Of a DNA stretch of 64,000 bases, positions 747 to 43,190 are shown piece by piece. The first letter of the stretch is position 1. Each line of letters opens with the position of its first letter. The notes below the pieces were generated by a model. It saw only the letters and a program-made list of their open reading frames with translations. It searched no databases and was not told where the DNA came from. This DNA is from a bacterium. Lineage in GTDB: Bacteria > Patescibacteriota > Patescibacteriia > Patescibacteriales > JAKAJF01. The DNA lies in NCBI GenBank assembly GCA_021788015.1, contig JAJYLD010000001.1, positions 17,581 to 81,580 of the forward strand, in the 5' to 3' direction. The position numbers and the translations under genes were made by a program.

Positions 747-2774
747 ATGAATTTTATAAAAAAGAAGAAAAAAGCGGTTATCATTTCCGTAATTTTGATT
801 TTAGGAGTTTCTTTTTACTTTTATAAAGCCAATGGCAGCGCGGCGCCCACTCGCTACATAGTGGGAACTCCGCAAACGCAAACTTTGGTAGTTTCCGTTT
901 CCGGAAGCGGACAAGTGTCGGCTTCGAATCAAGTCGACATAAAGCCGAATATCACCGCCAACGTGGTTTCGATCCTGAAAAAACAAGGCGACAAAGTCAA
1001 GGCGGGAGACGTCATCGCCCAACTTGACGACGCGAATTTAAAAATTCAGGCCGACCAAGCGGAAAACAGCGTCGAGATCGCTAAAGACAATCTTAATTTG
1101 AAACTGGCGGGTCCGACAAAGGAGAACATCGCCGTTTCCCAGAAATCGGTCGATTCCGCTCAAGTCGCTTACAATACTTCTCTTACCAATTTGCAAAACG
1201 CGAAAGATTCCGCAAATGAAAATTTGCAAAAAGCCCAGCTCGGTCTTTCCAACGCGCAGGTGTCGCTCGATAACGCCCAACAACAATACGACAGCGCTTT
1301 GGCTTCGCAAGACACGTCCTCCACTTCGAGTTCGCAAACACTGACAAACGCTTATGATAACGCCAAGTCGACCATCAATTCGGCCATGTTGAATTTCCAA
1401 CCTTCTTTGCAGTTGGGAGAAGATATTTTGGGAAGCGACGGTTTAAGCTCAAAATATACTTTCGGGGTATCGAACCAAGTTGTGAGCGACGCGCAAAATT
1501 CTTATTACGCCGCCAAGAACAGTTATAATAATTTTATCAACAAATACAATTCCGTTTCGCAAAACTGGAATCCGTCCGATGAAGACGCGCTTTTGACACA
1601 AACGATAGATACGGCCAATGACTTAAAAGCATTGGAACAAAACCTTTATAATTTGCTGGCAAATGTGGTTGCGACCGCCGAAGTTCCGCAAACAACGATC
1701 GATACGGAGAAACAATCTGTTTCTGGCGAAGAAACTTCTTTACTCTCGAGCATTTCGAGCGTCCAGACTTCAATTCAGACCATCAATAACGACCAGCTTG
1801 GAATAACCACTTCCGGAAATTCTTCATCTTCAAGCGTTGACAGTGCCAAGGCCTCTTTGGACACGGCCCAAAATAATTTTTCTTTGGCCGATAACGCTTT
1901 GGCTCAAGCAAAACTAAGCAACGAACAATCGATTAATACGGCGCAAGCCGATGTCAATTCCAAAAAAATTGCTCTTGGAACCGCGCAAGCCCAATACAAT
2001 TTGGAGGTGGCCAAGCCCCGTCCGGTCGACATCGCGGCCCTAGAAGCGCAAGTGCAGCAAGCGGAGAACAGTTATGAGGTGGCGTTGCAAAATCTTAAAG
2101 ACGCGCAAATCGTTTCTCCGATTGGCGGAACGGTCGCTCAAGTCGATCTTAATGTCGGCGATTCCGCTTCGCCTTCGACCGCAGTGGCCACGGTTGTCAC
2201 TCCGGAGCAAATAGCAGACGTTTCTTTGAATGAAGTCGATGCCGCCAAGGTCAAGTCCGGCCAACAAGCAACTTTGACTTTTAACGCCATCGACGGTTTA
2301 AGCATCTCCGGCGTAGTTACGGAAGTCGATACGATCGGCACGGTAACGCAAGGAGTTGTCGATTACAACGCGAAAATAGCTTTTGACACGCAGAACAACC
2401 AAATTAAACCGGGGATGAGCGCGACGGCGTCGATTATCGTCAATGAAAAACAGAATGTTTTGACCGTTCCCAATTCAGCCGTAAAATCGGACGGCAATAA
2501 CGGCAATTACGTCGAAGTCTTAACCGGTATCGATCCGAATCAGACTAACGCCGCGAACGGCGTGACCGCAAAAAATCCGCCGGAACAGGTGCCCGTGACC
2601 ATAGGATTGCAGAATGATACCGATACGGAAATTGTCCAAGGCTTGCAACCTACCGACGAAGTGGTGTCAAGAACCGTAACCTCCGGAGCAACCCAAACTT
2701 CAACCCAAAGCGGCTCGAGATCGTTCGGTGGTGGTGGCGGCGGCAGAATTTTTATGATGGGACACGGAGGGTAA
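747..2774 (+). CDS. HlyD/MacA-type membrane-fusion (periplasmic adaptor) protein with very long coiled coil
   Basis: 675 aa with an N-terminal TM helix and an extended Q/N/A/S-rich coiled coil. C-terminal beta segments (IVSPIGGTVAQVDLNVGD, LTVPNSAVKSDGNNGNYVEV) are typical of MFP adaptors. Sits immediately upstream of a MacB-type ATPase and permease. Confidence 0.8.
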   Translation: MNFIKKKKKAVIISVILILGVSFYFYKANGSAAPTRYIVGTPQTQTLVVSVSGSGQVSASNQVDIKPNITANVVSILKKQGDKVKAGDVIAQLDDANLKIQADQAENSVEIAKDNLNLKLAGPTKENIAVSQKSVDSAQVAYNTSLTNLQNAKDSANENLQKAQLGLSNAQVSLDNAQQQYDSALASQDTSSTSSSQTLTNAYDNAKSTINSAMLNFQPSLQLGEDILGSDGLSSKYTFGVSNQVVSDAQNSYYAAKNSYNNFINKYNSVSQNWNPSDEDALLTQTIDTANDLKALEQNLYNLLANVVATAEVPQTTIDTEKQSVSGEETSLLSSISSVQTSIQTINNDQLGITTSGNSSSSSVDSAKASLDTAQNNFSLADNALAQAKLSNEQSINTAQADVNSKKIALGTAQAQYNLEVAKPRPVDIAALEAQVQQAENSYEVALQNLKDAQIVSPIGGTVAQVDLNVGDSASPSTAVATVVTPEQIADVSLNEVDAAKVKSGQQATLTFNAIDGLSISGVVTEVDTIGTVTQGVVDYNAKIAFDTQNNQIKPGMSATASIIVNEKQNVLTVPNSAVKSDGNNGNYVEVLTGIDPNQTNAANGVTAKNPPEQVPVTIGLQNDTDTEIVQGLQPTDEVVSRTVTSGATQTSTQSGSRSFGGGGGGRIFMMGHGG

Positions 2775-2780
2775 TTTTTT

Positions 2781-3464
2781 ATGATTGAATTAAGAAACAT
2801 AAATAAAATCTACATCAGCGACGACGTTGAAACACAGGTGTTAAAAAACATTTCTTTCAAAATAGATAAGGGCGAGTTTGTGGCCATCACCGGTCCGTCG
2901 GGATCGGGGAAGTCAACCATAATGCATATCATCGGCGCCCTTGATTCGCCGACAAACGGAGAGTATTTTTTGGACGGGAACGATGTTTCCAAACTTTCCG
3001 ACGATGAACTTGCCGATATCCGAAGAAATAAAATCGGGTTTGTTTTTCAGGCGTTTAATCTGCTGCCGAGGGCCACAGTTTTGCGCAATGTTACGCTTCC
3101 GCTTGTTTACGCGGAGACCGTGCCTGAAAAAAGAACGGAGATGGCGAAGAAAGCTTTGCTCGCGGCCGGTTTGGACGAAAATCGCTGGTATCATTTTTCC
3201 AATCAGCTTTCCGGAGGGCAAATGCAAAGAGTGGCGATCGCCCGCGCTTTAGTAAACAATCCTTCGATTATTCTCGCCGACGAACCGACCGGCAATCTTG
3301 ATACGAAAACGGGCGAGATCGTTTTGGACACTTTCCAGAAACTTAACAGGGAAGAAGGTCATACCATTATCTTAATAACCCACGAATACGAGGTCGCGAA
3401 ACGAGCGAATCGAATAATATCAATTCGGGACGGGATGATTGTTGAGGATAGAAATAATTTCTAA
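2781..3464 (+). CDS. ABC transporter ATP-binding protein, MacB/LolD/FtsE-like
   Basis: Walker [11 protein letters not shown]-loop, signature [15 protein letters not shown], Walker [13 protein letters not shown]-loop ITHE. Confidence 0.92.
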
Positions 3465-12686: not shown

Positions 12687-12807
12687 AAGCAATTTTTAGT
12701 GCACAAATTATAAACAAAAAATATCCGCGAGGGGGCTTTACAAAATTTTTATTGTGTGATAAGCTCGGTTTACACTTGATTTGATTAAACAAAAAAGTGG
12801 AAAAAAG

Positions 12808-12946
12808 TTAATTAATAGGAGCTTTGATCCGTGATGAAAGAACACTGGTCGCCGGCCAATCTATCACGGGGAGCCAATGGCGAAACCGACTATTAATTAA
12901 TGTGTCTGATTTTTCGGATGCATTAATGAGTGGCCGGTTTTTTTCT
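12808..12946 (+). promoter_or_regulatory. riboswitch-like aptamer + intrinsic terminator, unit 1 (class unrecognised)
   Basis: P1 12808-12818/12890-12900 (TTAATTAATAG/CTATTAATTAA). P2 12829-12835/12863-12869 (CCGTGAT/ATCACGG). Distal CTGG-TCG-CCGG hairpin. The terminator reuses ACCGAC+ATTAATG (12885-12902), pairing with CATTAAT..GCCGGT (12921-12938), followed by T7. Confidence 0.6.
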
Positions 12947-12967
12947 TTTAAAATTAAATTAAATTCG

Positions 12968-13098
12968 TTTAATAGGAGCTAAGACCCGTGGTAAAAATTT
13001 CCTTGGTCGCCAGGATATCACGGTAGCCAATGGCGAAACCGACTATTAATTACATTTTGATTGCGCAAAATGGAAATGTAATTCGTGGTCGGTTTTTT
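12968..13098 (+). promoter_or_regulatory. riboswitch-like aptamer + intrinsic terminator, unit 2
   Basis: P1 12969-12975/13043-13049. P2 12986-12992/13017-13023 (CCGTGGT/ATCACGG). Its 3' strand TAGCCAATGGCGAAACCGACTATTAAT is identical to unit 1 from AGCC onward. Terminator ACCGAC..AATTACATTT (13038-13057) / AAATGTAATT..GTCGGT (13074-13093) followed by T6. Confidence 0.6.
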
Positions 13099-13308
13099 AT
13101 TTGAAGTTGGCTAAATCAGTAAAGAATTTTATGCGCGAAAATTTTCATGACAATTACAAACAAGAATTGAGAAAATTTATTTAAAGAAAAGGCGAAGGGA
13201 AAAATGGCTAAAGAAAAAAAGCCTAGCCGATTATATCGACGGAAATTCCGGATATAATGCGAAAATTAAGAGAAAGTTTGGAATACGCGAGAAAGAATAA
13301 ATAATTTT

Positions 13309-15831
13309 ATGCCCCTAAATACTTATCAGCAAAAGCGCGATTTTAAAAAGTCTCCGGAACCGAAAGGAGAACTGAAGGGGAGCAAAGGAAATTATTTGCA
13401 GTTTGTAATTCATAAGCATGACGCTTCCCATCCGCATTACGATTTAAGACTCGAGGGAGGAGGAGTCTTAAAAAGTTGGGCGATTCCGAAAGAACCGGAT
13501 TTGGATGCCGGTAAAAAAATTTTGGCGATAATGGTCGAGGATCATCCGTTCGATTACAAAAATTTCGAGGGCGTAATTCCGGAAGGAAATTACGGGGCGG
13601 GAACGGTAATGATTTGGGATAGCGGCGTTTATTACGCCATCGGAGCGTCAAACCGGGAAGAAAGCGAGAGAGAGATTTTGGATGGATTAAAAAAGGGGGA
13701 AATCGGTTTCGTCTTGGAGGGAAAAAAATTAAGAGGAGGGTTCTCGTTGGTAAAATTTAAAAAAGGGAAAGACAACAGCTGGCTATTGATTAAAAAAAAC
13801 GATCAGTTCGCAAACAAGGAAATTAAAGGCAAGGACATTTCAGTAAAAACCGGAAGAATGATGGAGGAAATAGCGGAGAATAAAAAAATAAAAAAGTTTG
13901 CGGGAAGATATTTGGAAATACATATTAAAGGGGCTCCTAGAGCTAAACTGCCGGAAATATATAAACCGATGCTGGCCCATTTAGTGAAGGAGCCTTTTAA
14001 TAGAAAAAATTGGTTGTTTGAAATAAAATACGACGGTTACAGGGCGATAGCGCGAATAGACGACGCCAGCGCGGAAATTTTTTCACGAAACGGCTTGAGT
14101 TTCAACGGTCGTTTTTCGTCGATAGCGGAATCTTTAAAGCATGTTCCTTATAAAGTCATTTTGGACGGAGAAATAGTCGTTACCGACAAACAAGGAAAAT
14201 CCGATTTCGGCCTTTTGCAAAATTATATAAAGACCGGCGACGGTTATCCGGTTTATTGCGTTTTCGACATTTTGCATTTTCAGGATTACGATTTAAAAAA
14301 TTTGCCGCTCGCGAAAAGAAAAGAGATTTTAAAAGAAATTTTGCCGGAACTTCCGAATGTAAAATATGTAAGCCATATTGAAGAAAGGGGAGAAGCTTTG
14401 TTTAAAATGACGGCCGAACGGGGAATCGAAGGCATAATCGCCAAAGACGAAGAAAGCGTTTACGAACCGGGTCAAAGAAGCGTCCATTGGCTGAAAATTA
14501 AAAAAATGAACCGGCAGGAGGCGGTTATCGGCGGCTTTACGGAACCGCGAGGCGAAAGAAGGGGAATCGGGGCTTTGGTTTTGGGAGTGTATGAAGACGA
14601 CGATCTTGTTTACATCGGCCATACCGGCGGGGCTTTTGCCGGAGAAAAACTCGCGGAGATGAGAAAAAGATTGAAGCCGTTAATCAAAAAAATTTCTCCG
14701 TTTAAGAAAGAACCGAAAACAAACGGAAAAGTCCATTGGGTTGAGCCGAAATTGGTTTGCGAAGCGAAATTTTCGAACTGGACAAAAGATGGCTATATGC
14801 GCCAGCCGATTTTTCTCGGACTCAGGGAGGATAAAAATCCACGCGAAATCAAAAGAGAAAAGGCGGAAGACGCGAAACTAATCGCCAAGGAGAGTAAGGG
14901 CGCGATTAAACATAAATTAAAAACGGCGGATAATTCGGAATTTAAAAATTTGGATAAAATTTTTTGGCCGAAAGAAGGTTACACTAAAGGAGACTTGTTG
15001 GACTATTATGAAAAAATCGCGCCGATAATTTTACCTTATTTGAAAGACAGGCCGGAATCGTTGCATCGTTTTCCTGACGGGGTAGAAGGGAAAAATTTTT
15101 TTCAGAAAAACATGGAAAAAATTCCGGGCGGGACGGAAACTAAAACGATTTATTCCGAAACGCAGGACAGGGAAATCAATTATATTTTATGCCAAGACAG
15201 GGAAACGCTTCTGTACCTTGTCAATTTGGGATGCATCGAATTAAATCCATGGAATTCAAGAATAAAAAGCTTGGACAATCCCGATTATATCGTTTTCGAT
15301 ATCGATCCGGGGGAAGCGCCTTTTCGGAAAGCGGTTCAAACGGCCTTGGTAACGCATGCGGTTTTGGGAGAGACGGGAGTAAAAAATTTTTGCAAGACAT
15401 CCGGAGCGACGGGATTGCACGTTTTTGTTCCCTTGGGAGGAAATTACAGTTATGAACAGGCGCGTGAATTCGTAAAACTGATAAATATCATTGTAAATGG
15501 CCGTCTGCCGAAAATAACGACCCTGGAGCGAAGCCCTGGCGAAAGGGACTCAAGAATTTATTTGGATTATTTGCAAAATCGAAAAGGGCAAACAACGGCT
15601 TCGGCTTACTCGGTCAGTCCTTTGCCCGGGGCCCCGGTTTCGACTCCTTTGAGATGGGAAGAAGTAAATTTTGATTTGAATCCGAAAAGTTTTAACATAA
15701 AAAATATTTTTGAAAGAATAAAAAAGATCGGAGATGTCTGGGAAGGAGTTCTCGGGGAAGGGATCGACATGGAAAAGGCTTTGCATAAATTGGAGCGATT
15801 TTTGGAAATTAAGAAGGGGGGTGGCTCATAA
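13309..15831 (+). CDS. ligD: ATP-dependent DNA ligase D (3'-phosphoesterase + ligase + polymerase/primase domains)
   Basis: 840 aa. The N-terminal PE domain has KRDFKKSPEPKG and FVIHKHDASHPHYDLRLE..GVLKSWAIPKEP. The ligase domain has adenylation motif EIKYDGYRA. The C-terminal LigD polymerase domain has LDKIFWPKEGYTKGDLLDYYEKIAP...SGATGLHVFVPL. Confidence 0.92.
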   Translation: MPLNTYQQKRDFKKSPEPKGELKGSKGNYLQFVIHKHDASHPHYDLRLEGGGVLKSWAIPKEPDLDAGKKILAIMVEDHPFDYKNFEGVIPEGNYGAGTVMIWDSGVYYAIGASNREESEREILDGLKKGEIGFVLEGKKLRGGFSLVKFKKGKDNSWLLIKKNDQFANKEIKGKDISVKTGRMMEEIAENKKIKKFAGRYLEIHIKGAPRAKLPEIYKPMLAHLVKEPFNRKNWLFEIKYDGYRAIARIDDASAEIFSRNGLSFNGRFSSIAESLKHVPYKVILDGEIVVTDKQGKSDFGLLQNYIKTGDGYPVYCVFDILHFQDYDLKNLPLAKRKEILKEILPELPNVKYVSHIEERGEALFKMTAERGIEGIIAKDEESVYEPGQRSVHWLKIKKMNRQEAVIGGFTEPRGERRGIGALVLGVYEDDDLVYIGHTGGAFAGEKLAEMRKRLKPLIKKISPFKKEPKTNGKVHWVEPKLVCEAKFSNWTKDGYMRQPIFLGLREDKNPREIKREKAEDAKLIAKESKGAIKHKLKTADNSEFKNLDKIFWPKEGYTKGDLLDYYEKIAPIILPYLKDRPESLHRFPDGVEGKNFFQKNMEKIPGGTETKTIYSETQDREINYILCQDRETLLYLVNLGCIELNPWNSRIKSLDNPDYIVFDIDPGEAPFRKAVQTALVTHAVLGETGVKNFCKTSGATGLHVFVPLGGNYSYEQAREFVKLINIIVNGRLPKITTLERSPGERDSRIYLDYLQNRKGQTTASAYSVSPLPGAPVSTPLRWEEVNFDLNPKSFNIKNIFERIKKIGDVWEGVLGEGIDMEKALHKLERFLEIKKGGGS

Positions 15832-16016
15832 TGAACGAAAATAGAAAAAAATCGGAAAAAAATAAAAATGAAGCCATGGATAGAATTTTGGAATGGGGAG
15901 AAATGGCGAAGGGCAAAACTTCGCAAATTAAAGAAAAGGCGAAAACCAAAGCGCGGGAATGGCGCGAAAAGAGCAAACGGCGAATCGATAAAATTAAAAA
16001 AGAAGGAAGGTGGTAA
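15831..16016 (+). CDS. Lys/Glu/Arg-rich low-complexity ORF (reading frame uncertain)
   Basis: Starts at an ATG overlapping the ligD stop (ATAATG). The region 15831-16250 is a purine-rich tract open in all three forward frames, so coding status and frame are ambiguous. Confidence 0.3.
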   Translation: MNENRKKSEKNKNEAMDRILEWGEMAKGKTSQIKEKAKTKAREWREKSKRRIDKIKKEGRW

Positions 16017-16249
16017 AGAAGGGCGCGCTACGGAAGAAAAACTCGGGGAACGGTCAAAGAAGAAATGCGCAAAATGAAAAAGAGTCGGTTAAAGACGGGA
16101 AAATCGAGAAAGAAAGCGACCGATCCCAAGCGGGTGAATCGCCATCTAAGCCTGAAAAAGGGGCGCGCAAGTCCCGCCGCGACGATCAAAAAAGAAGAAA
16201 AATTAAAAATATAAATAGTGGAGACTGGGAGGAGGTCTTCACCCGTTAG
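16010..16249 (+). CDS. Lys/Arg/Glu-rich low-complexity ORF (reading frame uncertain)
   Basis: GTG start overlapping the previous stop (GTGGTAA). 79 aa, highly basic. Could be the frameshifted continuation of the ORF at 15831. Confidence 0.3.
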   Translation: MVKKGALRKKNSGNGQRRNAQNEKESVKDGKIEKESDRSQAGESPSKPEKGARKSRRDDQKRRKIKNINSGDWEEVFTR

Positions 16250-16441
16250 AGATTCGATTTCGAAAATTTTTAATGGTTTATAATGAAGAAATTGAAATTA
16301 CATACATTTCTAACGGGAGTCCACAAAAAACAAAAATATGAATTCCGTTGAATGCGCCCGCAGATTAAAAAGATTTAACGCGGTCATAAATAAAAATTTG
16401 AAAAAACAAAAAACATCCGGGGCGAAGGGAGGTGAACGGAG

Positions 16442-16693
16442 ATGAGCATCATTATAATGATAATCATCGGCTTAATCGCGGGCTGGGTCGCAAGCGCGAT
16501 TATGAAAAGCAGAGGATTGGGTACGGGCGGAGACATTATAGCTGGAATTATCGGAGCGCTTTTGGGAGGCTATCTTTTGGGATTGATCGGTTTTAGAAAC
16601 GATACGATTATCGGGGCGGTTGTCACATCCGTAATCGGAGCCGTTATTTTCCTTTTTATCATCAGTTTGATAAAAAAGAGCCCGAGCACTTAA
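16442..16693 (+). CDS. GlsB/YeaQ/YmgE family stress-response membrane protein
   Basis: 83 aa. The pattern IIGLIAGWVASAIM...GIIGALLGGYL is typical of the family. GGAGG RBS upstream. Confidence 0.8.
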   Translation: MSIIIMIIIGLIAGWVASAIMKSRGLGTGGDIIAGIIGALLGGYLLGLIGFRNDTIIGAVVTSVIGAVIFLFIISLIKKSPST

Positions 16694-16694
16694 T

Positions 16695-17165
16695 ATGAGA
16701 AAAAAAATAACGACCATTCTGGCACTGGCAGTAATTGTAATTATCGCTCTTTTCGCGCTCGGCATTTCGGCGGGAGAAAAAAAAGAGGTTGCCGTAAACG
16801 ACGCAAACAATCGGCAAGTTGCCGCGCAGGAAAGAAAAATGGAATTTTCGATTGCGGAACACGATCATTCGGGCGAAAAAGGCGCGGCTATTTTTACCGA
16901 TATCGGAAACGGGCAAACGAAAGTCGAGTTGGATATGACGGGCGGTCCCAAAAATACGGATCAGCCGGCCCATATCCATTCCGGATCTTGCGATTCGCTC
17001 GGCGGGATTGTTTATACTTTGAATTACGTCAGGAACGGCTATTCGGAAACGATTTTGGATATTTCATTAGACCAGCTTTTGGACGAGCCCTTGGCGATAA
17101 ACATACATAAGTCGTCGAAAGATCTTCAGAATTATCTTTCGTGCGGAGATATAAAAAATAAATAA
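16695..17165 (+). CDS. secreted/lipid-anchored hypothetical protein with HIHxGxC motif (CHRD/SOD-like?)
   Basis: 156 aa with a signal/TM N-terminus. Motifs PAHIHSGSCDSLGG and LAINIHKS suggest a metal-binding beta-sandwich. Family assignment is uncertain. Confidence 0.5.
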   Translation: MRKKITTILALAVIVIIALFALGISAGEKKEVAVNDANNRQVAAQERKMEFSIAEHDHSGEKGAAIFTDIGNGQTKVELDMTGGPKNTDQPAHIHSGSCDSLGGIVYTLNYVRNGYSETILDISLDQLLDEPLAINIHKSSKDLQNYLSCGDIKNK

Positions 17166-17170
17166 ATTTT

Positions 17171-17365
17171 ATGTTTAAAGAATATTTCGAATTTGGGTGT
17201 AAGGATTTGGGAATCGATTGCGACTTTTTAATCCAATCGAGTTCGAAAGATGAGTTAATGGAAATCGCTCTCGACCATTTTGCAAAAATACACGGCAAGA
17301 AAGAAATACAAGACGGAGAAAAAAATGAAATGCACGAAGCGATAAGGACTATAACGGTCATTTAG
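17171..17365 (+). CDS. DUF1059 small metal-binding protein
   Basis: 64 aa. FGCKDLGIDCDFLIQSSSKDELMEIALDHFAKIHG matches the DUF1059 pattern. Confidence 0.7.
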   Translation: MFKEYFEFGCKDLGIDCDFLIQSSSKDELMEIALDHFAKIHGKKEIQDGEKNEMHEAIRTITVI

Positions 17366-17490
17366 TTCATTTTAACATACGATCGCGAAATGGCGGCGCA
17401 TATTTGTCGTTTCACGGTTGAAAAAAAGAAAAATTTTCACTACCCATGCCGGATTCACAGATGAATTTTTGGGAAGAAACGCTCGGAAGA

Positions 17491-17525
17491 AGCTTGCCGC
17501 CGAAACAAATTTTCGGCGGCAAGCT
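17491..17525. other. perfect 15-bp hairpin (intergenic)
   Basis: AGCTTGCCGCCGAAA-CAAAT-TTTCGGCGGCAAGCT. Lies inside the N-terminal extension of track ORF 17446, which argues against that extension. Confidence 0.6.
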
Positions 17526-17550
17526 TAAAGAGCAAAATCGTATTAATGAC

Positions 17551-17580
17551 AAAAAACTCCGGCGGGGACCGGAGTTTTTT
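17551..17580. terminator. bidirectional intrinsic terminator
   Basis: AAAAAACTCCGG-CGGGGA-CCGGAGTTTTTT. Confidence 0.75.
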
Positions 17581-17589
17581 GAGGACGTA

Positions 17590-18363
17590 ATGATTTCAAA
17601 AAAAGAAAAAATACATATCGGAACGTCGGGGTGGGTTTATCGCCATTGGCGGGGAGTTTTTTATCCCGAGGACTTGCCCGACAAAAAAAAATTAAAATTT
17701 TTTTCCGAACATTTTAAAACCGCGGAAGTAAATTATTCTTTTTACCGTTTGCCCGCCTTAAAAGTTTTTGAAAATTGGCGCGAACAAACGCCGGACGATT
17801 TCATATTCGCGGTGAAAGCGAGCCGTTTCATAACTCATGTAAAGCGTTTGCGCGATGTCGGGGGAGCGTGGACGGAATTTTTAAGGCGGGCAAAGGGTTT
17901 AAAAGAAAAAACGGGACCGTTGCTTTTGCAATTTTCTCCGAATTTTAAATTTAACGACGCGAATTTGCGAAGAATCGAAACGTTTCTCGAAGAATCAAAA
18001 AGCATTGAGAAAAAGTTATTTGGCAAAAAATTGAAATTGGCGTTTGAATTTCGCGATGCGAGCTGGGTTAACGAAAAAATTTTTGAAGTTTTAAAAAAAC
18101 ATCAAGCCGCCTGGGTCATCGCCGATTCGGGGGCATACCCTAAAACAGAAGCGGTTACCGCGCGATTTGTTTATGTTCGGATGCACGGACCGGCGGGTTT
18201 GTTCGGCTCCGGTTACCCCGAAAATGAAATAAAGAGTTTGGCCGAAAGAATTAAAACATGGACAAAAAACAATTTGGAGGTTTATGTGTATTTCAATAAT
18301 GATGCGCAAGGATTTGCGGTTAAAAATGCCAAAGAACTGCTGTCATTTTTAAAGCGATTATGA
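17590..18363 (+). CDS. DUF72 (YecE/UPF0759) family protein
   Basis: ATG at 17590 (MISKKEKIHIGTSGWVYRHWRGVFYPEDL...), downstream of the two hairpins. The motifs are typical of DUF72. The stop overlaps the next start (ATGA). Confidence 0.8.
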   Translation: MISKKEKIHIGTSGWVYRHWRGVFYPEDLPDKKKLKFFSEHFKTAEVNYSFYRLPALKVFENWREQTPDDFIFAVKASRFITHVKRLRDVGGAWTEFLRRAKGLKEKTGPLLLQFSPNFKFNDANLRRIETFLEESKSIEKKLFGKKLKLAFEFRDASWVNEKIFEVLKKHQAAWVIADSGAYPKTEAVTARFVYVRMHGPAGLFGSGYPENEIKSLAERIKTWTKNNLEVYVYFNNDAQGFAVKNAKELLSFLKRL

Positions 18364-19304
18364 TCAAGCGTTACGACGCGATCCGGTCCTTGAACTTAAG
18401 ATTTCCCGGATTGGAAAATCATATAAAATTCGACGTCAATAAAGATATCTTTTTATTTTACCGGATGTTTGTCGACGATCCGGATTTCTTAATTTGCGCT
18501 TTGATTCAAAATCCTTACGGTCCGACAAAAATAGGAAAAATAAAAACCGCCTTTGGCGACGTGGTGGCGGAAAATATAAAGATTTTAAACCGTTTGCACG
18601 GTTTCGATAAAAGCATTTTGCGTTCGTACGTTCGATATGAAAAAATAATAATATTGTTTTTGCTTAATTTCAAATTCATTTTTGAAGATAAAAAAAACAG
18701 GATGACGAAAAAAGTCTTTAACGGAAAGAAGGTGAGATACGCAATGAAGCTTCTCGAGGAAACGCGCATAAGCCAGGTAAAGAACAATTTGGAAGATTTG
18801 TTTTTTTCTTTTCTCAAACCCGAAATATACGATCATTATTCTTCTTTATTGAATTTGACGAAAAGCATTTATCTGAATCGGGAGAGAGAGATCAAAAAAA
18901 AGTTCGAGAAAATTTTGGAGAAAGAGATGATAAAAGTAAAAACGGAAACGCGGTTAAAATCCGTTTGCAGCATCCATAAAAAAATAATCAAGAAAAATAT
19001 TCTTCTTTCCCAGGTCCTGGACGTGATCGGTTTGAGACTTATCGTGGAAAATGAAGCCGAGTGTTATAAGGTTATGGGAATTATTCTCGCTCATTATCCG
19101 GTTATTTTAAACAAGATTAAAGATTATATCGCCATCCCGAAAGAAAACGGGTACGAAAGCATCCATCTGACGATTTTGCATGGTAATTATCCCCTGGAAA
19201 TTCAAATAAGAACCGAAGAAATGCATGCGATTGCGCAGTATGGCAAAGCCTCTCATTATAATTATAAGAAATACGAGTCCCGTCGTAAGCCGATCGCTGC
19301 GTAA
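18360..19304 (+). CDS. RelA/SpoT homolog: degenerate HD region + (p)ppGpp synthetase domain, no C-terminal regulatory domains
   Basis: Synthetase motifs DVIGLRLIV, DYIAIPKENGYESIHLTI, PLEIQIRTEEMHAIAQYGKASHYNYK. In the N-terminal region, ...DPDFLICALIQNPYGPTKIGKIKTAFGDVVAENIKILNRL aligns to the Rel HD domain but lacks the HD dyad. Confidence 0.85.
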   Translation: MIKRYDAIRSLNLRFPGLENHIKFDVNKDIFLFYRMFVDDPDFLICALIQNPYGPTKIGKIKTAFGDVVAENIKILNRLHGFDKSILRSYVRYEKIIILFLLNFKFIFEDKKNRMTKKVFNGKKVRYAMKLLEETRISQVKNNLEDLFFSFLKPEIYDHYSSLLNLTKSIYLNREREIKKKFEKILEKEMIKVKTETRLKSVCSIHKKIIKKNILLSQVLDVIGLRLIVENEAECYKVMGIILAHYPVILNKIKDYIAIPKENGYESIHLTILHGNYPLEIQIRTEEMHAIAQYGKASHYNYKKYESRRKPIAA

Positions 19305-19319
19305 AAATCAAATTAATTT

Positions 19320-20339
19320 ATGTCAAAGGAACAAAAATTATTCGATAAGGCGGAAACCGATTTAAGCGAAATTTATTCACTTACCTTCAATTCGAGTCCC
19401 AGTCCGATCGTTATCGCGTCTTTTGACGAAGATAAATTTTTTTTAGCCAACGAAAGCTTTTTGCGTCTGGTAGGACTCAACCGCGAAGAAATTATCGGTT
19501 TTCGGGCTCCCGATCTAAAAATCGGTTTGAACAATCGGGACAGAAATATCGTGAAACAAATTTTGAACAGGAAAAAATGGTTTCGAAATTTGGAATATGA
19601 TTTTCTGATTAAAACCGGAGAAAAGAGAAGCGTTCTTTTGTCCGCGGAACTTGTGGAAATTAAAAATCAGAAAAGCGTTTTATACGCGATCGTCGATATC
19701 ACCGATCGCAAAGCGATGGAAGAAGAATTAAGGAAGGCGAGAAATCAGCTGGAAGAACGAGTAAAAGAAAGGACGCGAGAACTTGAAAAATTGAACGGAT
19801 CTCTTCTTGAATCGTACAGGCATCTCGGAATCATCAACCGTCAAATTTCCATCTTTTTGAATTTAAATAAAAAAACGGGGGAAAACGCGAGAGAGATTGT
19901 CGAATATGTTTTAAATTCCGCAATCAGTCTTTCGCGCGCCGATGCCGGCATTATTTACGCAGTTGACGAAAACGATATGAGCTTGCGCCTTCTGGCCAGC
20001 AACGAGACCGATAAAAAAATAAGAAAAATTATCGAGAATTTGCCCTTGCAATCCTCCAAGTCGTTACTTTCTTTGATTACAAAGAGAATAAGACTGCAAG
20101 GAATGATTCAGCAGTATAATTTAAAAAAATTGAGCCTTAACAATAAAATCAATTATTTTGTCATGATTCCTCTGGCCGCGGACGGAAAGGTCAGAGGTTC
20201 TTTGTTTTTGGGGTTTTTCGAGGTGCAAAATTTGTCAATTCAGGAATTAGATTTCTTCGAAGCCTTTGCCATGCAAGCGGCCGTCGCCCTGTCGAGATTG
20301 CATGTTTTTTTCGAAAAGAATAATCATGAGGAGGTTTAG
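19320..20339 (+). CDS. PAS domain - coiled coil - GAF-like sensor protein without recognisable output domain
   Basis: 339 aa. PAS-like N-terminus (SPSPIVIASFDEDKFFLANESFLRLVGLNREEIIG...AIVDITDRK), a coiled coil (EELRKARNQLEERVKERTRELEKLN) and a GAF-like C-terminus. Confidence 0.7.
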   Translation: MSKEQKLFDKAETDLSEIYSLTFNSSPSPIVIASFDEDKFFLANESFLRLVGLNREEIIGFRAPDLKIGLNNRDRNIVKQILNRKKWFRNLEYDFLIKTGEKRSVLLSAELVEIKNQKSVLYAIVDITDRKAMEEELRKARNQLEERVKERTRELEKLNGSLLESYRHLGIINRQISIFLNLNKKTGENAREIVEYVLNSAISLSRADAGIIYAVDENDMSLRLLASNETDKKIRKIIENLPLQSSKSLLSLITKRIRLQGMIQQYNLKKLSLNNKINYFVMIPLAADGKVRGSLFLGFFEVQNLSIQELDFFEAFAMQAAVALSRLHVFFEKNNHEEV

Positions 20340-26980: not shown

Positions 26981-27080
26981 AGTCAAAACTCAAATGTCAA
27001 AAGTCGAAATCACAACTCAAAATTCAAAAGTTTTTAGTTTCGCGATTTAATTTTAAGTTTTGCGTTTTGAGATTTGAGTT
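26981..27080. repeat. AT-rich palindromic intergenic element (caaaactcaaa family), copy 2
   Basis: agtcaaaactcaaatgtcaaaagtcgaaatcacaactcaaaattcaaaag...ttttaagttttgcgttttgagatttgagtt. Shares long word blocks with the copies at 8179 and 38001. Confidence 0.6.
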
Positions 27081-27087
27081 AATATTT

Positions 27088-28476
27088 ATGAAAATTTTAG
27101 ATTTCATCCAAGTTAATCCGTATCTTTTTGAAATACCCAAGTCGTACAGATCGGATATGCGCGTACCGGCGCGGATTTACATCAAAAAAGAAATGCTCGA
27201 GGCGGTTTTGAAAGAAAGGGCAATCGAACAGCTTTTGAACGTCGCCACCTTGCCGGGAGTGGACCATTTCGCGCTTGCCATGCCCGATATACATGAAGGC
27301 TATGGCTTTCCGATCGGCGGGGTGGCCGCGATTCGCGCGCGTGACGGAGTAATTTCGCCGGGCGGCGTAGGATATGATATAAACTGCGGTGTCCGGTTGC
27401 TTTTAAGCGAACACGGTCATGACGAGCTGAAAGAAAAAATTTTGCCCTTGGTTAATCAAATGCAGCGCGACGTTCCGTCGGGAGTGGGGCGGGGTGGGAA
27501 AGTGGTTTTAAAAGAAAGCGAATCGGACGAGATTTTAAATACGGGCGCGGAATGGGCGTTGAAAAACGGATACGCGTTCGGAGAGGATTTGAAAAATATC
27601 GAAGAGAACGGCAATTTTAAAATCGCGGACGCGAAATTTGTTTCGGACAAAGCGAAAAAAAGAGGGGCGGACCAACTCGGCACGATCGGTTCGGGAAATC
27701 ATTTTTTGGAAATCCAAAAAGTCGAAGAAATTTACGACCGGGAAACGGCGGATAGATTCGGAATGTTTTTAAATCAAATTACGGTCATGATCCATACCGG
27801 ATCGCGCGGCCTCGGCCATCAGGTATGCACGGATTATGTTCGCGTCATGAACGAAGTCGTGCCGAAATATAAAATCGTTTTGCCGGACCGGGAACTCGCT
27901 TGCGCGCCGTTTCAATCGGAAGACGGACAAAATTATTTTCGCGCCATGGCCGCGGCGGCGAATTTCGCCTGGGTCAACCGGCAGATGATCACGCATTTAG
28001 TCAGAGGAGCGTGGGAAAGAGTTTTGAAAGATGGAAAATCGCTGAAACTGCTTTACGACGTCGCGCATAATATCGCGAAATTGGAAAAATACAACGGCCG
28101 CGAGTACATTGTCCATCGCAAAGGAGCGACGCGCGCTTTCCCGGGTCAGCCCGTAATTATTCCTGGATCGATGGGCACGGCTTCGTATGTCCTTGCCGGG
28201 ACGGAAACGGCGATGCGAGAGACTTTCGGTTCAAGCTGTCATGGCGCGGGGCGGGCGATGTCGAGAATGAAAGCGAAAAAGACAATTGATTATAATGAGT
28301 TGAAACAAGATTTGGCGAAGAAAGAAATCATATTCCGGGTCGGCTCGGCGAAAGAGATGCTCGAAGAGGCGCCGCAAGCCTACAAGAATATAGATGATGT
28401 AGTGGACGTTGTCCATGGCGCCGGTATCGCGAAAAAGGTGGCGAAGTTGAAACCGTTGGCGGTGATTAAGGGGTGA
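27088..28476 (+). CDS. rtcB: RNA-splicing ligase RtcB
   Basis: ATG at 27088. Motifs MPDIHEGYGFPIGG, GYDINCGVRLL, GSGNHFLEIQ, HTGSRGLGHQV, GSSCHGAGR. Confidence 0.95.
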   Translation: MKILDFIQVNPYLFEIPKSYRSDMRVPARIYIKKEMLEAVLKERAIEQLLNVATLPGVDHFALAMPDIHEGYGFPIGGVAAIRARDGVISPGGVGYDINCGVRLLLSEHGHDELKEKILPLVNQMQRDVPSGVGRGGKVVLKESESDEILNTGAEWALKNGYAFGEDLKNIEENGNFKIADAKFVSDKAKKRGADQLGTIGSGNHFLEIQKVEEIYDRETADRFGMFLNQITVMIHTGSRGLGHQVCTDYVRVMNEVVPKYKIVLPDRELACAPFQSEDGQNYFRAMAAAANFAWVNRQMITHLVRGAWERVLKDGKSLKLLYDVAHNIAKLEKYNGREYIVHRKGATRAFPGQPVIIPGSMGTASYVLAGTETAMRETFGSSCHGAGRAMSRMKAKKTIDYNELKQDLAKKEIIFRVGSAKEMLEEAPQAYKNIDDVVDVVHGAGIAKKVAKLKPLAVIKG

Positions 28477-35348: not shown

Positions 35349-35361
35349 TTTTAATTTCTAG

Positions 35362-35445
35362 TGCCCGGAGAGGGAATCGAACCCTCATGAGATTGCTCTC
35401 ACACGATTTTGAGTCGTGCGCGTCTGCCAGTTCCGCCATCTGGGC
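35362..35445 (-). tRNA. tRNA-Leu (anticodon CAA), type II with long variable arm
   Basis: Minus strand: GCCCAGATGGCGGAACTGGCAGACGCGCACGACTCAAAATCGTGTGAGAGCAATCTCATGAGGGTTCGATTCCCTCTCCGGGCA. Anticodon loop CTCAAAA and T-arm GAGGG-TTCGATT-CCCTC. One A-C mismatch in the acceptor stem. CCA is not encoded. Confidence 0.85.
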
Positions 35446-41584: not shown

Positions 41585-41607
41585 AGTACGTTCAATTTGA
41601 ACGTACT
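41585..41607. terminator. palindromic terminator overlapping the GGDEF gene stop
   Basis: AGTACGTTCAA-T-TTGAACGTACT. On the minus strand it is followed by CTTTTTATTTT. Confidence 0.6.
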
Positions 41608-42158
41608 TTGCTCGGCAAAAGAATTATTTTTTCCTTGCTTCTTTTAATTTTATACATCATTTCATCCGCTCGATCAATCAACTCAAGCGGACTTACATCT
41701 TCGCCGGGTTTATATTCCGTAATTCCTATGCTCGCCTTAATTTTATGGTCGGCGAGCAATTTTTTGGCAAAGATTTTGGCACTGTTATTATCCGTTTCCG
41801 GGAGAACGACCACGAATTCATCGCCTCCGTATCGCGCGCATAAATCGGACGACCTTGTATAGCGCTTGATTGTTTCGCCTACATAGGCCAGGTGTCGATC
41901 GCCCTCGATATGCCCCTCCGTGTCGTTCAGTTTTTTGAACCCGTCAAGATCCATAAACAAAACGGATAATTTGCGGCCGTATCGATCGGATCGATCCATT
42001 TCCAATTTCAGTTCTCTCGCCAGCCCCCGACGATTTAAAAGTCCGGTGAGATCGTCTATGGCGGCTTGCTGTTTCAGCTTTTCATTTTCGCGCCGCAATG
42101 ATATATTCTTTATCAATGCGACTATGAGTAAGGCTAAAATTAAAAAAAGAGCATACAT
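41592..42158 (-). CDS. membrane-anchored GGDEF diguanylate cyclase
   Basis: ATG at 42158 (MYALFLILALLIVALI) behind GGGAGGAC. DDLTGLLNRRG, FMDLDGFKKLND, RYGGDEFVVVL. Confidence 0.88.
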   Translation of the reverse strand: MYALFLILALLIVALIKNISLRRENEKLKQQAAIDDLTGLLNRRGLARELKLEMDRSDRYGRKLSVLFMDLDGFKKLNDTEGHIEGDRHLAYVGETIKRYTRSSDLCARYGGDEFVVVLPETDNNSAKIFAKKLLADHKIKASIGITEYKPGEDVSPLELIDRADEMMYKIKRSKEKIILLPSKVRSN

Positions 42159-42218
42159 GCCTAAAGTCCTCCCATTTTGTTTTTTTATCAAGGCAAAACA
42201 TCTGACTTTACAATAAAA

Positions 42219-43190
42219 ATGAAAAAACGTCAAGACTTTTGGAAAGAATTAAAAAAACGAGGGAAAATATACGCTTTGGCGCCAATGGCCGGCGTTACCG
42301 ATAGCGCGTTTCGGCAAATTTGCAAATCATACGGAGCCGATGTCGTTTACAGCGAAATGGCGAGCGCGACCGCTTTGACTTTTAATCCGAAAGAAACTTT
42401 GGACATGCTTAAGTTTGAAAAAATGGAACGGCCGTACGTCGTGCAACTGTTCGGAAGCAAGCCCGAACATTTCGCAGTCGCGGCGAAATTGGTAGCAAAG
42501 AAAATAAAGCCGGACGGAATCGATATCAACTTCGGATGTCCGGTCAAAAAAGTGCAAAAGCAGCATGCCGGCGCATCGCTCATGAGCGATTTGCGATTAT
42601 CGAAGAAAGTAATCGAGGCAGTTTTAGAAAATGCGAATTTGCCGGTTTCCGTAAAAATGAGAAGCGCGTCGGGTAAAATAGACGCGATAAAATTTTTAAA
42701 GAACATTGGAAATCTGAAAGTGAGCGCGGTCATGATTCATGGCAGAACGATGGCGCAGGGACACGCGGGAGAAGCGGATTGGAAAATTATCAGAGAGGCG
42801 CGGAAACATTTCCGGGGCGTTCTTCTCGCGAACGGAGGAATTACGAGCGCGGAAGACGCTCGAGCAATGCTCGAAAAAACCGGCGCGGACGGAGCGGGGA
42901 TCGCGCGCGGCGCCTTGGGCAGGCCGTGGATATTTAAAAATATAAAAAATAAAAAATTAAAAATAAAAAATGAGGATGTTTTCAAGATTGCCTTAAAGCA
43001 TTCGAGGCTGGCTTATAAACTGAAAGGCAAGCGGGGGGTTATTGAAATGAGAAAACATTTATGTTGGTATGTTTCGGGCATGTCGAACGCGAGCGAGTTG
43101 AGGAGGGAATTGGTGAAGGTGGAAAAAATAAACAAGATAAAGAGCATCTTGATAACGGATAACAAAAAAATTCTAAATCCTAATATCTAA
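42219..43190 (+). CDS. dus: tRNA-dihydrouridine synthase
   Basis: ATG at 42219. LAPMAGVTDSAFRQICKSYGADVVYSEM, GIDINFGCP, VMIHGRT. Confidence 0.9.
   Translation: MKKRQDFWKELKKRGKIYALAPMAGVTDSAFRQICKSYGADVVYSEMASATALTFNPKETLDMLKFEKMERPYVVQLFGSKPEHFAVAAKLVAKKIKPDGIDINFGCPVKKVQKQHAGASLMSDLRLSKKVIEAVLENANLPVSVKMRSASGKIDAIKFLKNIGNLKVSAVMIHGRTMAQGHAGEADWKIIREARKHFRGVLLANGGITSAEDARAMLEKTGADGAGIARGALGRPWIFKNIKNKKLKIKNEDVFKIALKHSRLAYKLKGKRGVIEMRKHLCWYVSGMSNASELRRELVKVEKINKIKSILITDNKKILNPNI

Follow-up and report, generated by a model that had tools for sequence, protein, structure and literature searches.

The 64,000-nucleotide stretch of contig JAJYLD010000001.1 analyzed here (the window), from a bacterium of the Patescibacteriota, carries on its + strand, at positions 12808-13098, two aptamer-plus-terminator units in tandem upstream of ligD, the gene for a ligase of non-homologous end joining (NHEJ). 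The results showed that both units are safe members of the clan of c-di-GMP-II riboswitches (c-di-GMP, cyclic di-guanosine monophosphate), a known class of RNA, and we consider it probable that they act as two ON switches in series which, transcribed from a conserved promoter, gate read-through into ligD. Neither the RNA class nor its arrangement in tandem is novel; what appears to be new is NHEJ as a target of this class, an association that is both conserved and unexpected, and the literature searched yielded no paper that connects ku or ligD with a riboswitch.

Two aptamer-terminator units of the c-di-GMP-II clan

The whole window was scanned on both strands with cmscan against Rfam at the curated gathering thresholds, a check that an earlier note on this DNA had asked for. 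Three matches were returned, namely one tRNA and two full-length matches (model positions 1-86) to RF03169, the c-di-GMP-II-GAG family, and the riboswitch matches lay on the + strand only. Aptamer 1 (12808-12900, +) scored 61.6 bits (E 8.3e-10) and aptamer 2 (12965-13053, +) scored 43.0 bits (E 4.7e-05) against a threshold of 40. RF03169 is a member of clan CL00127, the c-di-GMP-II clan, and was the best-scoring model for both units; behind the best clan model, the scan of the window gave one further clan match at gathering level and four at E<=10. The earlier note, made from the letters alone, had left the class of the motif unrecognized while sensing a faint likeness to c-di-GMP-II; the first of these statements no longer holds and the second had pointed to the right clan. 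Its description of tandem aptamer-plus-terminator units on this strand is borne out by the Rfam matches and also by direct repeats, which a repeat search placed at 12793-12839/12950-12996 (70% identity), 12869-12899/13022-13052 (97%, including AGCCAATGGCGAAACCGACTATTAATTA) and 12924-12943/13079-13098 (85%, corresponding to the terminator 3′ arms). The two aptamers are 76.7% identical.

In the Rfam alignment, P1 is formed by UUAAUUAAUAG/CUAUUAAUUAA in unit 1 and by UUAAUAG/CUAUUAA in unit 2, and P2 by CCGUGAU.../...AUCACGG with a G.U pair in unit 2, and these are the same P1 and P2 helices that had been drawn in the earlier note, wobble pair included. Aptamer 1 thereby has an 11-bp P1, P2a, P2 and a pseudoknot between GGUCGCC and GGCGA; in aptamer 2, P1 is 7 bp long and a 2-nt internal loop, UA, takes the place of the GGA of unit 1. 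The complementarity of GGUCGCC and GGCGA is perfect in both units.

Homologs were collected with the search pattern GGTCGCC-N(6-36)-AGCNANTGGCGARACCG in one genome per species, and the scan yielded at least 120 loci. Actinomycetota and Chloroflexota account for most of those listed, and the rest are spread over Saccharibacteria, Dojkabacteria, Gemmatimonadota and other groups. A first MAFFT alignment (A3) misplaced unit 2 and the insertions and was replaced by a trimmed seed alignment (A4), from which our own covariance model R1 was built, and by a model-based alignment (A6). R1 recovered 116 aptamers in 100 sources and scored 67.2 bits for aptamer 1 and 59.1 bits for aptamer 2. Across the 116 members in A6, 86.1% of the cells in helices P1, P2a and P2 were paired as compared with 35-41% with slid partners, percentages that are inflated by the fitting of A6 to the model; two-sided changes were seen in 16 of the 18 pairs, and double changes in 562 cells, with none of 500 shuffles reaching the observed values. 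The pseudoknot GGUCGCC/GGCGA was paired in 98% of cells; one of its pairs changes from U:A to C:G, and A:U, U:A and U.G variants occur singly (one ortholog, L207, has GGUUGCC), although most of its columns are invariant, partly fixed by the search pattern's own selection. Homologs and covariation, on which the earlier note had staked its proposal, are both at hand. For GGUCGCC that note had allowed either a local mini-hairpin or a pseudoknot with GGCGA; because of the 98% pairing across the family the pseudoknot was chosen, and the mini-hairpin, which gained no support, was dropped.

Each aptamer runs into an intrinsic terminator of its own. Terminator 1 (12882-12946, +) consists of a hairpin at 12882-12941 with a minimum free energy (MFE) of -28.7 kcal/mol followed by U7 at 12938-12944, and terminator 2 (13035-13098, +) of a hairpin at 13035-13096 with an MFE of -29.8 kcal/mol followed by U6 at 13093-13098. 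Both hairpins reappear in the MFE structure when the region is folded as a whole, and the 321 nt from 12790 to 13110 fold at z = -7.0 relative to shuffles. The 3′ arm and U-tract of terminator 1 are repeated in unit 2 and are kept in a related contig (L203). A simple terminator scanner called neither hairpin, presumably because the stems are long and interrupted. The hairpins share positions 12882-12900 (unit 1) and 13035-13053 (unit 2) with the aptamers, and in each unit AAACCGAC together with the P1 3′ strand makes up the 5′ arm, so that ACCGAC is re-used; aptamer and terminator are therefore mutually exclusive. The earlier note was thus right in giving each unit its own terminator and in proposing mutually exclusive P1 and terminator pairing, with a predicted ligand-ON layout. 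Each unit has the layout of a transcriptional ON riboswitch and would be expected to function as one, and the pair forms a tandem with separate expression platforms, that is, two same-class aptamers, each with its own terminator, before one gene.

Upstream of aptamer 1, a putative sigma-70-type promoter (12737-12765, +) was read from the sequence, with TTTACA at 12737-12742, a 17-nt spacer ending in TG-N, and TAAGCT at 12760-12765. Alignment showed that this TTTACA-N17-(TG)N-TAAGCT arrangement upstream of the aptamer is common to the window and to two related contigs (L203 and L207), a conservation consistent with a role as the promoter of the tandem. A consensus scanner did not call the site at 12737-12765, and it called no promoter-like site between units 1 and 2.

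Association with ku-ligD in related genomes

The gene downstream of the tandem, ligD (13309-15831, +), is intact and encodes a protein of 840 aa with phosphoesterase, ATP-dependent ligase and primase-polymerase domains (Pfam LigD_N 126 bits, DNA_ligase_A_M 120, DNA_ligase_A_C 97 and LigD_Prim-Pol 281), in agreement with the three-domain NHEJ ligase recognized in the earlier note. Its nearest homologues, with 57-59% identity, lie in ku-ligD operons. Terminator 2 and the ligD ATG lie 210 nt apart, as had been estimated, but this gap is not a plain leader. When the Ku proteins of two relatives (L202 and L203) were compared with the window by tblastn, a match was obtained at 13107-13301 (E 8.5e-13, 52% identity), and translation and BLASTP identified a ku pseudogene remnant (13107-13302, +) made up of the C-terminal ~65 codons with three in-frame stops, the N-terminal ~190 codons being gone; its BLASTP alignment spans Ku residues 194-255. 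The remnant starts 9 nt past the U-tract of terminator 2 and ends at the ancestral ku stop right before the ligD ATG. No second Ku-like sequence was found by tblastn in the window, and none of the best 120 Ku homologues lay on the organism's 361,715-nt contig, a divergent copy or a copy on another contig still being possible. A 23-nt direct repeat (83% identity) was also noted here, with copy 1 (TAAAGAATTTTATGCGCGAAAAT, 13120-13142) inside the ku remnant and copy 2 (TAAATAATTTTATGCCCCTAAAT, 13298-13320) across the ligD start codon; in AT-rich DNA such a repeat may be due to chance.

In the closest three relatives identified (L202, L203 and L207), where an intact Ku gene adjoins ligD, an aptamer lies directly upstream of ku-ligD as a single copy with its terminator. 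L203, whose LigD is 57% identical to that of the window, has the order aptamer (2084-2174; RF03169 52.9 bits, R1 57.4 bits), terminator, Ku (2241-3020) and LigD (from 3001). The same order is found in L207, whose Ku is 78% identical to that of L203, with the aptamer at 2258-2336 (R1 68.2 bits; RF01786, the canonical c-di-GMP-II family, 53.8 bits at a threshold of 53.5), Ku at 2402 and LigD at 3162. The third contig, L202 (LigD 59% identity), begins within the 3′ half of the aptamer and continues with a short hairpin and U-tract and with Ku at 53. The aptamers upstream of ku-ligD are 67-78% identical overall, aptamer 1 being 72-77% identical to those of L203 and L207, and they share the P1 core UUAAUAG/CUAUUAA, which is identical in L207 and differs by one wobble change (UUAGUAG) in L203. 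The link to NHEJ is thus no isolated case, since it recurs upstream of ku-ligD in three related Patescibacteria-like contigs. The best explanation is that the ancestral arrangement was riboswitch-ku-ligD and that in the present genome the switch was doubled while ku decayed to a 3′ stump; since the orthologs in the relatives are single-copy, the doubling is lineage-specific. Gene order beyond LigD is also kept, with small ORFs (open reading frames) and a DUF72 gene following it in the window (within 15831-20339), L202 (3546-4556) and L203 (5593-7284).

Outside these contigs the association was not seen. There was no aptamer in L204, L205 and L206 (LigD 54-57% identity) or in L208 (Ku 63% identity), and 80 metagenome LigD loci (40-51% identity) contained none by regular expression or covariance model. 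Conversely, tblastn with LigD and Ku found neither gene adjoining the aptamer among the ~120 pattern loci listed; L111 has a phosphoesterase-domain gene 2.5 kb from its aptamer and L038 has a ligase, neither of them adjacent. The survey of downstream genes in other genomes, which had been proposed in the earlier note, showed that apart from ku-ligD in the three relatives they are heterogeneous at the ~120 pattern loci listed, most being without a Pfam match, with the caveat that the choice of downstream ORF in high-GC genomes is crude. Those with a match are largely surface or secreted proteins (adhesin-like, collagen repeats, subtilases, Ig-like, sortase, VWA/SpaA, CAP, glycosyltransferases), together with one GGDEF protein. 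Other aptamers of the same type were found in the candidate phyla radiation (CPR), in two Saccharibacteria (L028 and L037) and one member of the Dojkabacteria (L106). Their downstream genes encode a VWA/SpaA-like adhesin, a secreted protein with a CAP domain and a protein lacking annotation, and the class is therefore used in the CPR beyond the NHEJ locus.

The 'GAA' type and the likely ligand

Both aptamers of the window read U-GG-UCGCC...GGCGA-A-ACCG, which we call the 'GAA' type, and so do those of L203 and L207. The consensus of RF01786 is U-GG-GCAC...GUGC-A-ACCG (UGGGCAC...GUGCAACCG) and that of RF03169 is C-GG-uCGCC...GGCGA-G-ACCG (CGGuCGCC...GGCGAGACCG), with UGGUCGCC...GGCGAAACCG as the corresponding strings in the window. 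Among the pattern matches listed, 71 have A and 54 have G as the base 5′ of ACCG, and the bases 5′ of GGUCGCC and 5′ of ACCG occur together as U/A in 65, as C/G in 44 and otherwise in 12. In A6, these positions (columns 51 and 146, corresponding to window positions 12846/12885 and 13004/13038) are U:A in 59, C:G in 36 and U.G in 6 of the 116 aptamers, and this covariation indicates that the two bases form a base pair. The state of the pair, U:A or C:G, largely parts the canonical or weakly GAG Rfam calls from the strong GAG matches, and a sizeable group of 'GAA' aptamers falls at the boundary between RF01786 and RF03169.

Several 'GAA' aptamers are canonical by Rfam (L005 with 69.5, L106 with 64.4, L089 with 59.8 and L207 with 53.8 bits against RF01786), and in the sample scored other A-type aptamers reached 42-60 bits with RF03169, while G-type aptamers reached 60-75 bits, with one exception (L010, 41 bits). 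A strict GAG member has a G 5′ of ACCG (GGCGAGACCG) paired with a C; both units of the window have A (GGCGAAACCG) and U (UGGUCGCC) in these places, which sets the window apart from strict GAG members. Judged from the aligned bases, its units are closer to canonical than to GAG at the pair by which the two families differ.

By alignment, the positions in question would correspond to ligand contacts of the canonical aptamer. In structure 3Q3Z, ligand contacts have been listed for A13, A14, U37, G39, U60, A61, C68, A69, A70, C71, C72, G73 and A74 (PMC7288161), and the contact string CAACCGA aligns to the 3′ strand of the aptamer. Because this contact list was aligned to the consensus 3′ strand, we infer that positions 67-69 read 'GCA' in canonical aptamers and 'GAG' in the variant. 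An A-U pair forms a minor-groove triple with one of the ligand guanines (PMC7583470); this pair would correspond to U37:A69 of 3Q3Z and would then be kept in the window. Aligned to the RF01786 consensus, the window retains the equivalents of U37, A69 and A70-A74 (AACCGA); C68 is replaced by A, with a compensating U on the partner strand, so that in the 'GAA' units the G:C pair beside the U:A pair is replaced by U:A. Given that the U37:A69-equivalent pair is kept and that gene contexts elsewhere resemble a c-di-GMP regulon, c-di-GMP is most likely the ligand of the window aptamers. A 'GAA' type bridging the canonical aptamers and the GAG variant appears to be undescribed.

The window also encodes a protein with a GGDEF domain, in keeping with the cyclase reported in the earlier note. 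This protein of 213 aa (41592-42233, -; Pfam GGDEF 132.6 bits) has an N-terminal hydrophobic segment and an intact RYGGDEF active-site motif preceded by an RSSD (RxxD) motif, which is evidence at the level of sequence for a capacity to synthesize c-di-GMP in this Patescibacteria-like genome.

Proposed mechanism, alternatives and known systems

In the mechanism that we favor, transcription would start downstream of 12765, from the putative promoter at ~12737-12765. With ligand bound, ACCGAC and the 3′ strand of P1 would be held in P1 and the pseudoknot and the polymerase would read into ligD, whereas with no ligand the same bases would form the 5′ arm of a terminator of about -29 kcal/mol and transcription would stop at ~12944, with escapees stopping at ~13097. 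Both switches would have to be occupied for the polymerase to reach ligD, and this could give the lower leak and steeper response that have been described for tandem riboswitches (PMC9481103). NHEJ would in this way be coupled to a second messenger marking a sessile or non-growing state, which would fit the stress and stationary-phase restriction of bacterial NHEJ (PMC6379672). The identity of the ligand, the ON logic in vivo, the promoter and a ligD that lacks a promoter of its own are the elements of this scheme that we infer.

Several observations weigh against this mechanism, and some of them bear on the ligand. Both units score best on the GAG-variant model, for which we know of no validated ligand. 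Moreover, C68 is a listed ligand contact and its equivalent in the window is A (PMC7288161). Others concern the locus. In addition to the inflated pairing percentages mentioned above, 84 more distant LigD/Ku loci are without an aptamer, and the NHEJ association amounts to four contigs of one lineage and may go back to a single evolutionary event. With ku a pseudogene and no Ku among the best 120 on the contig, the locus might be decaying, and the AT-rich ku remnant, which puts ~210 nt between terminator 2 and ligD and contains 4 weak promoter-like sites against 3.0 expected by chance, leaves room for an internal constitutive ligD promoter.

The points on the ligand suggest an alternative that keeps the architecture and the target and has the aptamers bind a molecule other than c-di-GMP, such as c-di-AMP (cyclic di-adenosine monophosphate), 3'3'-cGAMP (cyclic GMP-AMP), pGpG or a compound connected with DNA damage or dormancy, through a pocket altered as in the GAG and GCG variants. 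Besides the GAG-model scores and the A at the C68 position, it could appeal to DNA repair being atypical for c-di-GMP regulons, to the lack of a riboswitch-NHEJ paper in the literature searched, and to the sense that a damage- or dormancy-linked signal would make for ku-ligD. However, the change from C68 to A is compensated by a change from G to U in the partner, the U:A pair that separates canonical from GAG aptamers is in the canonical state, the L207 ortholog and other 'GAA' aptamers pass the RF01786 threshold, further 'GAA' aptamers precede surface, adhesin or secreted proteins, and a GGDEF cyclase is encoded nearby. We therefore regard another ligand as unlikely.

Still less probable is a relic leader, in which ligD came to be transcribed from a promoter within the ku remnant after the loss of ku, and the switches would only stop transcripts begun upstream and control no gene any longer. 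The reduction of ku to a stump with stop codons, the promoter-like hexamers at 13147-13176 and 13278-13305, and the 210 nt between terminator 2 and the ligD ATG would all agree with it, but promoter-like sites occur at chance frequency and ligD is intact. In addition, the aptamers keep every invariant position and the helices of the family and the terminators and promoter are intact, whereas ku has gained three stops in 65 codons; such preservation is not expected if the leader were decaying neutrally. Finally, a chance or compositional artefact of AT-rich intergenic DNA, or a function on the opposite strand, has only the low G+C of the region in its favor and is effectively refuted by the + strand Rfam matches (E values of 8.3e-10 and 4.7e-05 over 64 kb and both strands), the orthologous copies upstream of ku-ligD in three other contigs and the folding z of -7, so that its probability is negligible.

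We thus return to the c-di-GMP-responsive tandem as the preferred reading. Bacterial NHEJ is thought to be important in non-growing states with a single chromosome, and to our knowledge the signals that induce it are known in few model species, where they act via protein regulators. On balance, we lean slightly towards the view that in this lineage of the Patescibacteria (CPR) ku-ligD is under direct control of a cyclic-dinucleotide riboswitch, which would make it the first RNA-based second-messenger-gated DNA-repair operon; in a stronger version, the 'GAA' type would have a ligand specificity of its own. If true, end-joining repair would be tied to the sessile or dormant state that is usually signaled by c-di-GMP, and this in Patescibacteria, ultra-small uncultured bacteria of whose regulatory circuits almost nothing has been described. 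If the stronger version holds, the NHEJ association would be a clue to the ligand of the GAG and GCG variants. The position of the 'GAA' type on the border between the canonical and GAG models bears on the limits of the families and on which changes alter specificity. Moreover, with its ku stump the locus presents an NHEJ operon in mid-decay whose regulator was meanwhile duplicated, a situation that appears to be undescribed so far.

Other genes of the window are given here for context. The nearest named relatives of its BipA/TypA (77-80% identity) are metagenome-assembled genomes (MAGs) of the Patescibacteria/Parcubacteria group. Further on from ligD, on the same strand, lie genes for a RelA/SpoT-type small alarmone synthetase (18360-19304) and a PAS-GAF protein (19320-20339). 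The window also contains an RtcB RNA ligase gene (27067-28476, +; 557 bits), a homologue of TraG/TrwB-like type IV coupling proteins (47328-49874, +) with weak Pfam matches, and, as its sole tRNA, a tRNA-Leu with anticodon CAA (35361-35445, -).

Among known systems, the closest is the canonical c-di-GMP-II riboswitch (RF01786; 3Q3Z), which reportedly goes back to work by Lee et al. in 2010 and Smith et al. in 2011. It shares with the window units the clan CL00127, the helices P1, P2a and P2, a pseudoknot in which the P2 loop pairs with the ...ACCGAC 3′ strand, and the U...A pair 5′ of ACCG, and an ON/terminator platform is ordinary for the class. The window units differ from it in scoring higher on RF03169 than on RF01786, in a target that is ligD (ku-ligD in the relatives) and not a motility, adhesion or virulence gene, and in a pseudoknot of UCGCC/GGCGA in place of GCAC/GUGC, with one extra pair and two compensated swaps, one of them at the C68 position (PMC7288161). 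With the c-di-GMP-II-GAG family (RF03169) they have the UCGCC/GGCGA pseudoknot strands in common; in that consensus, however, the flanking bases are C...G (CGGuCGCC...GGCGAGACCG), as opposed to U...A in the window (UGGUCGCC...GGCGAAACCG). This variant is said to have come from Weinberg et al. in 2017; in the literature searched, the papers naming it gave it simply as an Rfam model.

Tandem c-di-GMP-II riboswitches have also been reported before, as 59 doublets and 9 triplets (Sherlock et al., 2022; PMC9481103). The 'pseudo-cooperative' tandems of that review are, like the one in the window, two full same-class aptamer-plus-terminator units in series; they are mostly located before a surface-anchor gene in Paraclostridium and close relatives, whereas here the target is ligD in a Patescibacteria-like genome. 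Multiple copies were also present in our own set, with pairs in L082 (3340-3432 and 3540-3637, -) and L002 (471-548 and 729-807, -) and three copies each in L040, L017 and L065; the sources are MAGs of Chloroflexota, Gemmatimonadota, Acidimicrobiia and Nitriliruptoria, and the copies lie a few hundred to a few thousand bases apart.

With regard to NHEJ itself, expression in Bacillus subtilis is forespore-specific. In Sinorhizobium meliloti, ku and ligD are stress-inducible (PMC6379672). In both organisms a signal of physiological state switches the genes on, as is proposed for the window, but it does so through protein regulators (sigma factors, general stress response), in contrast to the cis-acting RNA that would here sense a second messenger. 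The 8-oxoguanine riboswitch likewise resembles the present case in being a variant tied to the handling of DNA damage (PMC10556655), yet it has a guanine-class fold, senses a damage product and controls other genes, and is unrelated to NHEJ and to cyclic dinucleotides.

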